Positions 10,264-12,355 of a DNA stretch of 54,991 bases are shown piece by piece. Position 1 is the first letter of the stretch, and every line of letters starts with the position of its first letter. Both the position numbers and the translations under genes were made by a program. Source of the DNA: Anaerolineae bacterium (GTDB lineage Bacteria; Chloroflexota; Anaerolineae; 4572-78; NAK82); contig JBMFPH010000001.1 in assembly GCA_049969215.1 (NCBI GenBank), positions 1-54,991 of the forward strand. The letters run 5' to 3'. Under the pieces are notes generated by a model. That model ran no database searches and was not told where the DNA came from. It saw only the letters and a list, made by a program, of their open reading frames with translations.

Positions 10264-10452
10264 AATGAATACCTTCCTCCAAGCTATATTATATGTCGTC
10301 TTTATCGTAATATCTCCATGCAGAGTTTATCCTTTACCGGGAAGAAGATCAATTCTGGTGCCTGAGAAGATCGTGGGGAAAAGATTGGACAGCCACTCTT
10401 ATCAAGAAGATAAATCAATGAGCGGAGCAATTGGACGGTTTTTCAAGCCGTT

Positions 10453-10481
10453 TTGACATTTGCTGGCTTATGTGCTATATG
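10453..10481 (+). promoter_or_regulatory. promoter for the aro leader/aroH/DAHP synthase unit
   Basis: TTGACA (10453-10458), a 17-nt spacer, then an extended -10 TGcTATATG (10473-10481). Confidence 0.55.
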
Positions 10482-10559
10482 AAGAGTGGAAGAGCTGATA
10501 GAGTTCTTGCTGCTTTTGATGAGCTGCCGGGTGTGATCTTCTGAAGGGTGGTACGCGCG

Positions 10560-10661
10560 ATGCATGCTTGCGCGGTGTGGACACGTCTGATCGCACAAGA
10601 GCATAGCAGCACCTATTATTTCTATCAATTTCAAGTGTGGGTGCTGCTTCCACCCAAGTAG
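10560..10661 (+). CDS. candidate 33-aa leader peptide rich in aromatic codons (MHACAVWTRLIAQEHSSTYYFYQFQVWVLLPPK)
   Basis: Hand-translated ATG 10560 to TAG 10659-10661. The SD-like GAAGGGTGG lies at 10543-10551. Codons 19-27 read YYFYQFQVW. The ORF sits upstream of a terminator and of aromatic-pathway genes. It is below the ORF-track size cutoff. Confidence 0.55.
   Translation: MHACAVWTRLIAQEHSSTYYFYQFQVWVLLPPK
10605..10655 (+). promoter_or_regulatory. mutually exclusive helices overlapping the leader ORF (attenuator segments 1 and 2)
   Basis: AGCAGCACC (10605-10613) pairs with GGTGCTGCT (10640-10648) and encloses the aromatic codons. GGGTG (10639-10643) pairs with CACCC (10651-10655). TTCCACCC (10648-10655) is complementary, with one bulge, to the terminator 5' arm GGGCGTGGA (10697-10705). 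Confidence 0.45.
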
Positions 10662-10697
10662 TGCCGGTCTCACTTTCACCGGGCGGGAGAATTTGAG

Positions 10698-10734
10698 GGC
10701 GTGGAGCAGCCAGATCCACGCCTTTTGTGTTTTC
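10698..10734 (+). terminator. canonical intrinsic terminator upstream of aroH
   Basis: GGCGTGGA (10698-10705), a 9-nt loop, then TCCACGCC (10715-10722), followed by TTTTGTGTTTTC (10723-10734). It lies 60 nt before the aroH start codon. Confidence 0.75.
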
Positions 10735-10794
10735 ATTGAACGGTAGATGGATTTCATAGGTCAATAAGCCAAGCAGACAGAGGAAAGGATTGCA

Positions 10795-11223
10795 ATGCTA
10801 GCTTGTCGAGGCGTGCGAGGTGCCACCACGTGCGAAGCAAACACCCGCGAAGCCATCTTAGTGGCCACACGCGAATTGTTGATCCAAATGATCGAACGTA
10901 ATGGGATTGCTAAGACCGATATTGCCAGTGTCTTCTTTACCACCAGTCCCGACCTTACGGCCGAATTTCCGGCAGTGGCAGCGCGCGAGTTAGGATGGAA
11001 CCATGTGGCAATGCTATGTGCCCATGAGATTGCCGTGCCTCACGGATTACGTCGTTGTATACGGGTGATGATACATTGGAACACGGAAAAACTCCCTGAA
11101 GAGATCCAGCATGTCTACTTGCATGAAGCTGTTAGTTTGCGCCCTGACTGGTCGGAAGTAAGCAGTGGAGGACACCGGTCGCAGAATGCGAATGAAGCTA
11201 CGCCTGAATTGGTGAAAAAGTGA
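10795..11223 (+). CDS. aroH: AroH-class monofunctional chorismate mutase
   Basis: The N-terminal CRGVRGATT matches the RGIRGATT signature of B. subtilis AroH. ...[11 protein letters not shown]... and CIRVMIHW are collinear with AroH. The RBS is GAGGAAAGG. Confidence 0.88.
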
Positions 11224-11238
11224 CGAAGGGGTGAACCG

Positions 11239-12252
11239 ATGATCATTGTGATGCGCATGGGCGCTACCCAGCAGGAGATTGAGAGTGTAATTGCTCGTGT
11301 ACATGAGTTGGGCTTCCGCACCCATCTATCGCAAGGTGAGGAACGCACCATCATTGGAGTCATTGGCGATGAGCGTCCCGTCGACAAAGATAGTCTGGCG
11401 CGCATGCAAGGTGTGGAGCGGATCGTGCCTATCCTGCGTCCATTTAAGCTGGCCAGCCGCGATTTCCAGCCGCACGATTCCATCATTGAGATTGCTGGCC
11501 ATCCCGTAGGAGGAAAACGCCTTACAATTATGGCTGGCCCTTGTGCTGTTGAAAGCCGCGAGCAAATCTTGGAAACGGCGCAGCTGGTCAAAGAAGCTGG
11601 GGCTCATATGCTACGTGGCGGCGCCTTCAAGCCAAGGACTTCTCCTTACAGCTTTCAAGGACTAGGTGAGGAAGCGCTCGTTTATCTGGCCGAAGCACGC
11701 GAGCTCACCGGCCTGCCCGTTGTGACCGAGGTGATGTCGCCCGAGCAAGTGCCACTGGTAGCCAAGTATGCCGACATTTTACAGATTGGCACGCGTAACA
11801 TGCAGAATTATGCCTTATTGCATGCGGTTGGTGAAGCTGGTTTCCCCGTGCTACTCAAAAGGGGCATGATGTCCACCATTGAAGAGTTGTTGATGAGTGC
11901 TGAGTACATATTGTCGCACGGTAATCGCAAAGTGATCCTGTGTGAGCGGGGTATCCGCACATTCGAAACCTACACGCGCAACACACTGGACATCAATGCT
12001 GTGCCAGTGCTCAAAGAGCTAACTCATCTGCCTGTAGTCGTGGACCCCAGCCATGCCACGGGCAAGTGGAATTTGGTCAGCGCCGTCTCGCGAGCCTCGA
12101 TTGCAGCTGGTGCGGATGGATTGATCATCGAAGTGCACCCACATCCCGAAAAAGCTCTCTCCGATGGGGGGCAATCCTTGCGTGCTGCACGTTTCGCCGA
12201 GCTGATGAAACAGTTGGAGCGTGTCGCCGAGGCGGTTGGGCGTACAATGTGA
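11239..12252 (+). CDS. type I-beta 3-deoxy-7-phosphoheptulonate (DAHP) synthase with N-terminal ferredoxin-like/ACT-like regulatory domain
   Basis: The N-terminal ~75 aa ([26 protein letters not shown]...GVIGD) resembles the Thermotoga-type regulatory domain. The catalytic motifs are [13 protein letters not shown] and VVDPSHATG. Confidence 0.9.
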
Positions 12253-12355
12253 GAGTCGGTCGTGTCTTTCGACCCTGACACTATCCCACCTTGATTATGA
12301 GACGGCTATGGATAGCATGACAACATAGAACAATGTTTCTTATCAGGAGATTGCG

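Follow-up and report, generated by a model that had tools for sequence, protein, structure and literature searches.

The DNA analyzed here is a 54,991-nt stretch (the window) of contig JBMFPH010000001.1 from an Anaerolineae bacterium of the phylum Chloroflexota. It carries aroH, the gene for an AroH-type chorismate mutase, followed after only 15 nt by the gene for a type I 3-deoxy-D-arabino-heptulosonate 7-phosphate (DAHP) synthase with an N-terminal ferredoxin-like regulatory domain, so that the two genes presumably constitute one operon. The DAHP synthase gene lies immediately 3′ of aroH in 81 related loci as well. Between the promoter and aroH we find a short open reading frame (ORF) with a run of Tyr and Phe codons, three RNA helices that exclude one another pairwise, and an intrinsic terminator (Table 1). 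The layout, its conservation in relatives and the lineage-specific pairing between leader and terminator make it very probable that this region is a classical ribosome-mediated transcription attenuator of the aroH-DAHP synthase operon, reading the charging of tRNA-Tyr and tRNA-Phe. Such an attenuator had been proposed in an earlier note on this DNA. Direct reading of the sequence confirmed its coordinates for the promoter, the Shine-Dalgarno (SD)-like site, the 33-codon ORF, a 9-bp helix, the terminator and the U-tract, while Pfam searches bore out its assignment of the two enzymes.

Table 1. Features of the aroH leader region and the regulated genes (positions in the window)
Feature	Position	Strand	Description
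Promoter	10453..10481	+	-35 TTGACA 10453-58, 17-nt spacer, TG 10473-74, -10 TATATG 10476-81
SD-like site	10543..10551	+	GAAGGGTGG, 8 nt 5′ of the leader ATG
Leader ORF	10560..10661	+	33 codons plus TAG (10659-61): MHACAVWTRLIAQEHSSTYYFYQFQVWVLLPPK
Segment 1 (anti-antiterminator 5′ strand)	10605..10613	+	AGCAGCACC, pairs with GGTGCTGCT 10640-48
Regulatory codons	10614..10625	+	Tyr19-Tyr20-Phe21-Tyr22 (TAT TAT TTC TAT), conserved core Y-Y-[F/Y/H]-[Y/F]
Segment 2	10640..10655	+	GGUGCUGCUUCCACCC; 5′ part pairs with segment 1, 10643-55 with segment 3
Spacer hairpin	10664..10682	+	CCGGU (10664-68) with ACCGG (10678-82), inside the antiterminator loop
Intrinsic terminator	10695..10734	+	Stem 10695-10705 with 10715-10725, core GGCGUGGA / UCCACGCC, 9-nt loop, U-tract UUUUGUGUUUUC
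Segment 3	10697..10710	+	GGGCGUGGAGCAGC; terminator 5′ arm and half of the loop, antiterminator 3′ strand
aroH	10795..11223	+	AroH-type CM_1 chorismate mutase, first regulated gene; PF07736, E = 6e-47
DAHP synthase	11239..12252	+	Type I with N-terminal ferredoxin-like regulatory domain; PF00793, PF18152

Conservation of the Leader ORF

The leader ATG is located about 72 nt 3′ of the promoter, and the same frame can also be read from a GTG at 10548. Its start codon, its ribosome-binding site and its position behind the promoter and ahead of the first structural gene predict that this short ORF is translated. Its aromatic cluster, Y-Y-F-Y-Q-F (10614-31), makes it the only aromatic-rich short ORF in the whole 55-kb window.

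The closest aroH loci come from four metagenome-assembled genomes (MAGs) of Anaerolineae/Ardenticatenia (L001-L004, 79-86% identity) and from a metagenome contig (L081, 96% AroH identity). In all five, the start, frame and stop of the leader are preserved despite many substitutions: MHACTVWTRLIAQEYSSTYYFYQLQVRVLFPPK in L081, …YSSTYYFYQFQVRVLLPPR in L001, MRISAVGVQQGMPTYSGDYYFQHQAQVLPSPE in L002, MSIPAVWVKPGMSTYNGHYYYFQHKAQVLPPPE in L003 and MRVLTIWTLRITEGYSSTYYHFCRVSAQVLLPPK in L004. A 3-nt insertion in L003 adds exactly one codon and leaves the frame intact. The N-terminus of the peptide varies, the parts kept being Y-S-x-x-Y-Y-[F/Y/H]-[Y/F] and the last 6-7 codons. The GAAGG of the SD-like site is retained in L081 and L001, and L002-L004 have other purine-rich sites (GGAG, GGGG) before the ATG. 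The promoter pattern TTGAC(A/G)-17 nt-(TGC)TATA(T/G)N likewise precedes the leader in L001, L003, L004, L081 and the Chloroflexaceae-type loci described below. Absence of the leader ORF or the terminator from orthologous regions had been named earlier as grounds for giving up the attenuator; both are present upstream of aroH in the closest relatives, with the ORF in frame and with compensatory changes in the RNA.

The same comparison narrows down what the leader would sense. The earlier note counted six aromatic codons and suggested that all three aromatic aminoacyl-tRNAs are read, which does not hold for Trp. The codon for Trp27 (10638-40) is replaced by Arg even in L081 with its 96% AroH identity, as well as in L001, and is absent from L002-L004; moreover, stalling at codon 27 would place the ribosome on segment 2 itself, which makes Trp sensing unlikely. 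Phe24 (10629-31) is not conserved either, being Leu in L081. The candidate sensor is therefore Tyr/Phe, in keeping with the pathway, since chorismate mutase commits chorismate to Phe and Tyr only. DAHP synthase with this ferredoxin-like domain, as in Thermotoga maritima, is feedback-inhibited by Tyr/Phe.

The leader peptide matched no family in Pfam or NCBIfam, nor did any of six leader peptides searched against NCBIfam by hmmscan at E up to 10. None of eight leader peptides was present in a collection of 15 billion proteins when looked up as exact sequences, i.e., they have never been called as genes.

Mutually Exclusive Helices and Their Covariation

Segments 1 and 2 form a 9-bp helix (1:2), whose isolated hairpin has a calculated energy of -18.9 kcal/mol and which is present in the unconstrained minimum free energy (MFE) structure. 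The terminator (helix 3:4) consists of the core arms GGCGTGGA (10698-705) and TCCACGCC (10715-22), followed by the U-tract TTTTGTGTTTTC (10723-34); extended to 10695-10725, its stem reaches -17.4 kcal/mol. The third helix, the antiterminator (2:3), joins 10643-55 with 10698-10710 (RNAduplex, -22.3 kcal/mol). In it, GCUGCU (10643-48) pairs with AGCAGC of the terminator loop (10705-10), and after a bulged U the pairing continues with CCAC (10650-53)/GUGG (10701-04) and, beyond a bulged C, with CC (10654-55)/GG (10698-99). The pairing of this segment with the terminator 5′ arm had been recognized earlier; the helix proves longer than then thought and takes in the loop. Since helices 1:2 and 2:3 share the bases 10643-48 and helices 2:3 and 3:4 share 10698-10705, the three are pairwise exclusive in the classical 1:2 / 2:3 / 3:4 manner.

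Conservation of the helices was assessed in three alignments, comprising 17 Chloroflexaceae-type sequences (A2), six window-type sequences (A3) and both types together (A1, MAFFT). Because A1 does not bring segment 2 of the two types into structural register, covariation was counted within each type (A2 and A3), and the types were compared by a duplex-matrix permutation test of 14 x 14 leader ends versus terminators.

In A3, 90% of the alignment cells of helix 1:2 are paired, and in L002 and L003 the same GGUGCUG finds another 5′ partner (CAGCACC or CAGCAC) directly after the Tyr/Phe codons. The terminator is paired in 98.5% of cells in A3, and the homologous hairpin in 99.2% in A2, where three compensatory pairs were found. 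For the antiterminator, the cells paired amount to 92.7% in A2, with two compensatory pairs, versus 37-50% in slid controls, and to 97.2% in A3 versus 30-51% in slid controls. Segment 3 is homologous to GGGCGUGARGCA of the Chloroflexaceae type; there, the A/G within GUGARGC can in both forms pair with U in the antiterminator, and a U to C change compensates in the terminator. The spacer hairpin within the antiterminator loop shows a compensatory change too, its U68-A78 pair being C-G in L081 (A3), and small analogous hairpins occur in the other leader types.

Across all lineages, the leader ORF ends in 15-25 nt that can pair with the 5′ arm and loop of the terminator of that same lineage. In the permutation test, with each leader matched to its own terminator, the diagonal sum was -338 kcal/mol versus -238 +/- 12 kcal/mol for derangements, with none of 7284 as low.

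These data also explain why the C-terminus is the best conserved part of the peptide within a lineage, with QVL[LP][PS]P[KER] shared by window-type leaders and AWSLRTV by those of the Chloroflexaceae type. Its codons coincide exactly with segment 2, and where they change residue the pairing survives, as in L30F, accommodated by a G-U pair (L081), in the endings LLPPK / LPSPE / LPPPE, and in L018, where a W to R change in the leader is accompanied by a compensating change in the loop. The conserved C-terminus thus appears to reflect a constraint on the RNA, not on the peptide.

This bears on a rival explanation, namely that the ORF is a TnaC-like arrest leader in which …VLLPPK-stop, with Pro-Pro before the stop codon, halts the ribosome, depending on a free amino acid or the status of elongation factor P, so that the arrested ribosome, and not hungry Tyr/Phe codons, sets the choice between terminator and antiterminator. 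Pro-Pro motifs are known stalling sequences, and this counts for such a reading together with the conserved C-terminus. However, the substitutions just described alter the peptide and keep the pairing, the C-termini are unrelated between lineages, which have only the Phe/Tyr run in common, and a ribosome held at the stop codon would cover segment 2 and favor termination, which leaves no obvious sensing logic. We therefore regard an arrest peptide as highly improbable.

Leaders of Other Lineages

At the same position in other Chloroflexota, we found at least six Phe/Tyr-rich leader ORFs that are seemingly unrelated in sequence. The Chloroflexaceae leader reads MAQRVHSFYRYFYYFTGPHMAWSLRTV, with variants such as …FYFYFYF…, and that of Anaerolineales MQSNLGFFFYAYFYGAPKAAVASR; an AT-rich group has FNFYYYYY, and single loci have AYYYYFGF (L012), FRFYYTFYF (L024), FSFYFAAYYYGF (L045) and FAFYFYGYFY (L110). 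ORFs with at least five aromatic residues in six were present in 36 of the 151 upstream regions of aroH, compared to none of the 151 reverse-complement and none of the 151 shuffled controls. The Phe/Tyr run is the sole peptide feature that the lineages share. In the 34 distinct leaders, both synonymous codons of each amino acid are used (TTT 68, TTC 27, TAT 64, TAC 43), and L009 and L011 encode an identical FYFYFYF core by different codons, which indicates that selection acts on the identity of the codons and not on a nucleotide word. A hairpin begins 12-48 nt 3′ of the leader stop in all 34, the distance being 19-36 nt in all but four.

A second rival takes the ORF as incidental and the region as an RNA switch controlled by a ligand or a protein: a T-box, a riboswitch, or a target of a TRAP/PyrR-like protein bound to a U/A-rich repeat. 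Terminator/antiterminator pairs are indeed common to all these mechanisms, the UAU/UUU repeats could in principle serve as a protein-binding array, and GGGUGGUAC (10546-54) is superficially like the T-box motif. Against this stand the conserved start, frame and stop, indels of whole codons, and frequent synonymous changes of Tyr/Phe codons and Phe-Tyr swaps, a pattern that fits selection on codons; the T-box-like word is not conserved either, being GAAGGATGATACC in L001. Rfam cmscan produced no match at the gathering score in the whole window, none at E up to 10 in 10300-10850 (551 nt), and none in ten related loci. A switch of this sort has, in our estimate, as little chance of being correct as the arrest peptide, and the T-box (RF00230) and riboswitches were rejected, given no covariance-model match even at E up to 10 and the lack of conservation of the T-box-like word.

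That the leader is a chance ORF beside an ordinary hairpin, or lies opposite a spurious or real minus-strand gene, with no regulatory role, is the least probable explanation of all: short ORFs and GC-rich hairpins are common and the folding statistics of the window by itself are modest (see below), but neither agrees with the enrichment of aromatic ORFs over controls, the conserved frame, or the lineage-specific complementarity of leader and terminator with its compensatory changes, and the minus-strand ORFs opposite the leader (10443-10757 and 10468-10764, 98-104 aa) are not conserved, being broken into fragments of at most 75 aa in L002-L004.

Several observations on individual leaders deserve mention in their own right. 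In L007 (about 2400-2470 of that locus), the 5′ arm and loop of the hairpin are missing (…ATAGAC|GCCCTCTCTG…), and in L015 (2319-2384) a TCG to TAG change ends the leader six codons ahead of the usual stop; these natural "mutants" may represent assembly errors or a real loss or alteration of attenuation. In the Anaerolineales-type L025 (about 2200-2240), L028 (about 2265-2300) and L030, the leader ATG follows a TAACAT -10 box by only about 10 nt and has no SD, so the mRNA from which this leader is translated may be leaderless or nearly so. The AT-rich group (L141, L145, L149, L153-L157, L160) has its leader, …FNFYYYYY..DV[YC]ALTS, about 290 nt 5′ of aroH; 12 nt separate its stop from a long hairpin, beyond which lies a second terminator-like hairpin that has a T-run. 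An Atribacterota MAG (L067) has a C-terminus resembling that of this group (…FYFSYLYFYFIGDVCALVS), and together they suggest the same strategy outside Chloroflexota.

Very short Phe/Trp ORFs (MAKKFVVFWWKK, MMCCLMEKRFAVFWLKG, VVSWWSGWLRGI, VAKRFAASCWKEWFPGI) about 160-200 nt 5′ of aroH in loci of the Margulisiibacteriota / Saganbacteria / WOR-1 (L037, L040, L041, L066, L119) may constitute a Trp/Phe leader in another phylum. Finally, Ktedonobacterales / Chloroflexia MAGs (L029, L032, L039) have short ORFs with the motif DSYYR-x-PSG about 125-160 nt 5′ of aroH; with only two Tyr codons, these may be a further, weaker leader type.

Proposed Mechanism

Taken together, these findings give strong comparative support to a ribosome-mediated attenuator built of a leader ORF, exclusive helices and a terminator. 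Most probably, it would act as follows. Transcription would start about 7 nt after the -10 box, at about 10487-10488, and a ribosome would translate the 33-codon leader. With ample Tyr and Phe, the ribosome would reach the TAG codon and cover segment 2, leaving segment 3 to pair with segment 4, the 3′ arm of the terminator, so that the hairpin and the U-tract would stop the polymerase before aroH. When Tyr-tRNA or Phe-tRNA is scarce, the ribosome would stall with codons Tyr19-Tyr22 in its A site and cover segment 1; 10643-55 would then be free to pair with 10698-10710, thereby precluding the terminator and allowing transcription of aroH and the DAHP synthase gene. Without any translation of the leader, segment 2 would be held in helix 1:2, and the terminator would form as well.

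The placement of the codons and the stop fits this scheme. Segment 1 lies within 15 nt 5′ of Tyr19-Tyr22, and segment 2 ends 3 nt ahead of the stop codon. The order of codons and segment 1 is reversed in L002, L003 and the Chloroflexaceae type, where the codon run is directly followed by segment 1, which remains inside the footprint of the ribosome. By its geometry, this layout would let a stalled ribosome mask segment 1 and a terminating ribosome block helix 2:3. The elements themselves, the mutual exclusivity of the helices and their conservation with covariation can be read directly from the sequences. From them we infer the coupling of translation to transcription, the stalling and the amino-acid-dependent read-through on which the mechanism would depend.

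Folding calculations agree with the scheme in part. In the absence of a ribosome, the combination of 1:2 and 3:4 is the MFE structure. With the RNA taken from 10555, a ribosome placed at Tyr19-Phe21 drops the probability of the terminator from 0.87 to 0.10-0.29, whereas at the stop codon it is 0.94. The antiterminator is competitive in equilibrium folding, so that the possible objection that it could not compete with the terminator, raised earlier, does not apply.

Several points weigh against the attenuator. With the RNA from 10487, only a stall at Phe21 lowers the terminator (0.27), all other codons leaving it at 0.77 or above; the result of masking by the ribosome at equilibrium thus shifts with the 5′ boundary chosen. 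In most relatives, the terminator dominates at equilibrium at any ribosome position. Before segment 4 is made, a local hairpin (10640-49/10656-65, -26.8 kcal/mol) rivals the antiterminator (about -27.7 kcal/mol), and the pairing probability of the 5′ arm at that stage does not discriminate between ribosome states. The 2:3 duplex of the window alone has z = -1.5 versus mononucleotide shuffles, 21 of 300 shuffles being as good, and the overall fold z-score is -2.3. Segment 3 is invariant in the six window-type sequences, and no compensatory change occurs in helix 2:3 there, so that this subgroup provides conservation only for that helix. The U-tracts are poor in L002, L003 and the Chloroflexaceae type, and the -10 box TATATG matches TATAAT in four of six positions, its final T being missing. 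We also know of no studies of transcription-translation coupling in these deep-branching bacteria. On the other side, stability also favors the terminator in the E. coli trp leader, where the choice is made kinetically. Equilibrium folding is therefore best regarded as competitive, not decisive, and thermodynamics alone is no proof of a switch.

Two side observations concern additional pairings. In the unconstrained MFE structure of 10485-10740, the SD-like GGGUGG (10546-10551) pairs with CCACCC of segment 2 (10650-10655), which is why the stall scan changes once the 5′UTR is included. This long-range pairing may be fortuitous, or it may link initiation on the leader to the switch; L001 does not share the GGUGG. 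In the Chloroflexaceae type, the tail of the hairpin is U-poor, CUCUGYUUGU (L005 2159-2243, L010 2425-2509, L011, L016, L020), and this tail plus the end of the 3′ arm (CCCUCUCUGCUUG) can pair with the aroH SD region (CAGCAGGGAGG). Without the 5′ arm, as would be the case upon antitermination, the aroH SD is predicted to be fully sequestered (-19 to -25 kcal/mol), which hints at translational control as a further layer, or at another mechanism, in this type.

Flanking Sequences

Neither the promoter nor the terminator was listed by the consensus scans of the window. The promoter is missed because the last base of its -10 box is G, and the hairpin because its 9-nt loop exceeds the 8-nt limit of the terminator scan; these technical misses neither support nor refute either element. 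A gene for an M23 peptidase diverges on the opposite strand, and the leader hairpin thus lies within a divergent intergenic region, with a promoter on one side and the gene served by that promoter on the other, which rules out that it terminates a convergent gene.

Downstream, the 103-nt gap between the DAHP synthase gene and thrS (12253-12355) contains no clear terminator or T-box according to the Rfam and consensus scans; thrS may belong to the transcript of the aro genes or be served by a promoter of its own that escaped recognition. An 11-nt word of the terminator 5′ arm, GGGCGTGGAGC, recurs within the coding sequence of the ferredoxin-like domain of DAHP synthase (…QGVER…) in L025, L028, L033, L084 and L054-L056. 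Its codons align with MQGVER of the window protein at about 11390-11410, a position placed by protein alignment, the word itself not having been searched for in the window. This recurrence is probably due to chance.

Discussion

In this work, we provide comparative evidence that the aroH-DAHP synthase operon of an Anaerolineae bacterium is very probably preceded by a leader-peptide attenuator, a known kind of switch apparently undescribed in this phylum and operon, and one that reveals no new regulatory principle. The closest precedent is found in Corynebacterium glutamicum, where the aroR leader (Phe-Tyr-Phe) attenuates the aroF (DAHP synthase) operon and is induced by Phe limitation (Neshat et al. 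2014, cited in PMC11802643), an attenuator also predicted in PMC4046766. Both systems combine a short leader ORF with mixed Phe and Tyr codons, a DAHP synthase operon and ribosome-mediated attenuation. The differences are that C. glutamicum belongs to Actinomycetota and not Chloroflexota, that here an AroH-type chorismate mutase comes first and is followed by a type I DAHP synthase with a ferredoxin-like domain, and that the run here is longer and Tyr-dominated (Y-Y-F-Y); the two leaders were compared by description only, with no evidence of homology. In Acholeplasma, the motif uORFC-13-1 was predicted 5′ of aroF (PMC8632094). Like our leader, it is a predicted upstream ORF with Phe codons and an intrinsic terminator before DAHP synthase, brought out by comparative analysis only; it differs in phylum and sequence and is Phe-based where the leader described here is Tyr/Phe, and no Rfam match links it to the window or its relatives.

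With the enterobacterial pheL-pheA, pheM-pheST and trpL-trpEDCBA systems, the leader shares the 1:2/2:3/3:4 logic, the pathway-cognate codons, the terminator in the 5′-leader and the superattenuation predicted when the leader is not translated. Rfam includes Trp, Phe and His leader families and NCBIfam leader-peptide models; neither the cmscan of the window and ten relatives nor the hmmscan of six leader peptides gave a match to them. Unlike the enterobacterial leaders, the window has its regulatory codons in the loop of helix 1:2, and L002, L003 and the Chloroflexaceae type have them just 5′ of segment 1. With the stop codon placed beyond segment 2, that segment would be masked directly by a ribosome terminating there; the antiterminator extends into the terminator loop, and one leader would read two amino acids. 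T-box riboswitches, which serve aromatic amino-acid genes in Bacillota and have also been reported in Chloroflexota, likewise read tRNA charging through a terminator/antiterminator switch in the 5′-leader, whereas our element has no Stem I, specifier or conserved T-box sequence and would sense through translation of an ORF.

The claim of novelty made earlier thus has to be narrowed, since for DAHP synthase there are the precedents of C. glutamicum and Acholeplasma; it may stand for Chloroflexota and for an operon headed by aroH. In the open-access literature, we found no such leader described for Chloroflexi/Chloroflexus or before an AroH-type chorismate mutase, although absence is weak evidence. 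On balance, we incline to the view that this is the first described member of a family of Tyr/Phe leader attenuators acting on aroH-DAHP synthase across Chloroflexota (Ardenticatenia/Anaerolineae, Chloroflexaceae, Anaerolineales) and apparently also in other phyla, in which the leader has been reinvented or has diverged many times with the architecture kept. A nearly leaderless mRNA seems to be used by some versions, and a helix that may sequester the SD is added in others.

If the proposed mechanism is correct, translation would have to influence the folding of nascent RNA in these deep-branching bacteria, and a working attenuator would provide indirect evidence for transcription-translation coupling in Chloroflexota. 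The leader versions could support a covariance or upstream-ORF model, so that annotation stops missing such elements, and, as sequence-unrelated versions of one design, they would form a natural data set on the evolution of attenuators. For Chloroflexota, a large phylum that is for the most part uncultured and in which few regulators have been characterised, the attenuator would supply the missing transcriptional control of both the entry step of the pathway (DAHP synthase) and the Phe/Tyr branch point (chorismate mutase), with one leader for two amino acids matching the Tyr/Phe allosteric domain on DAHP synthase.

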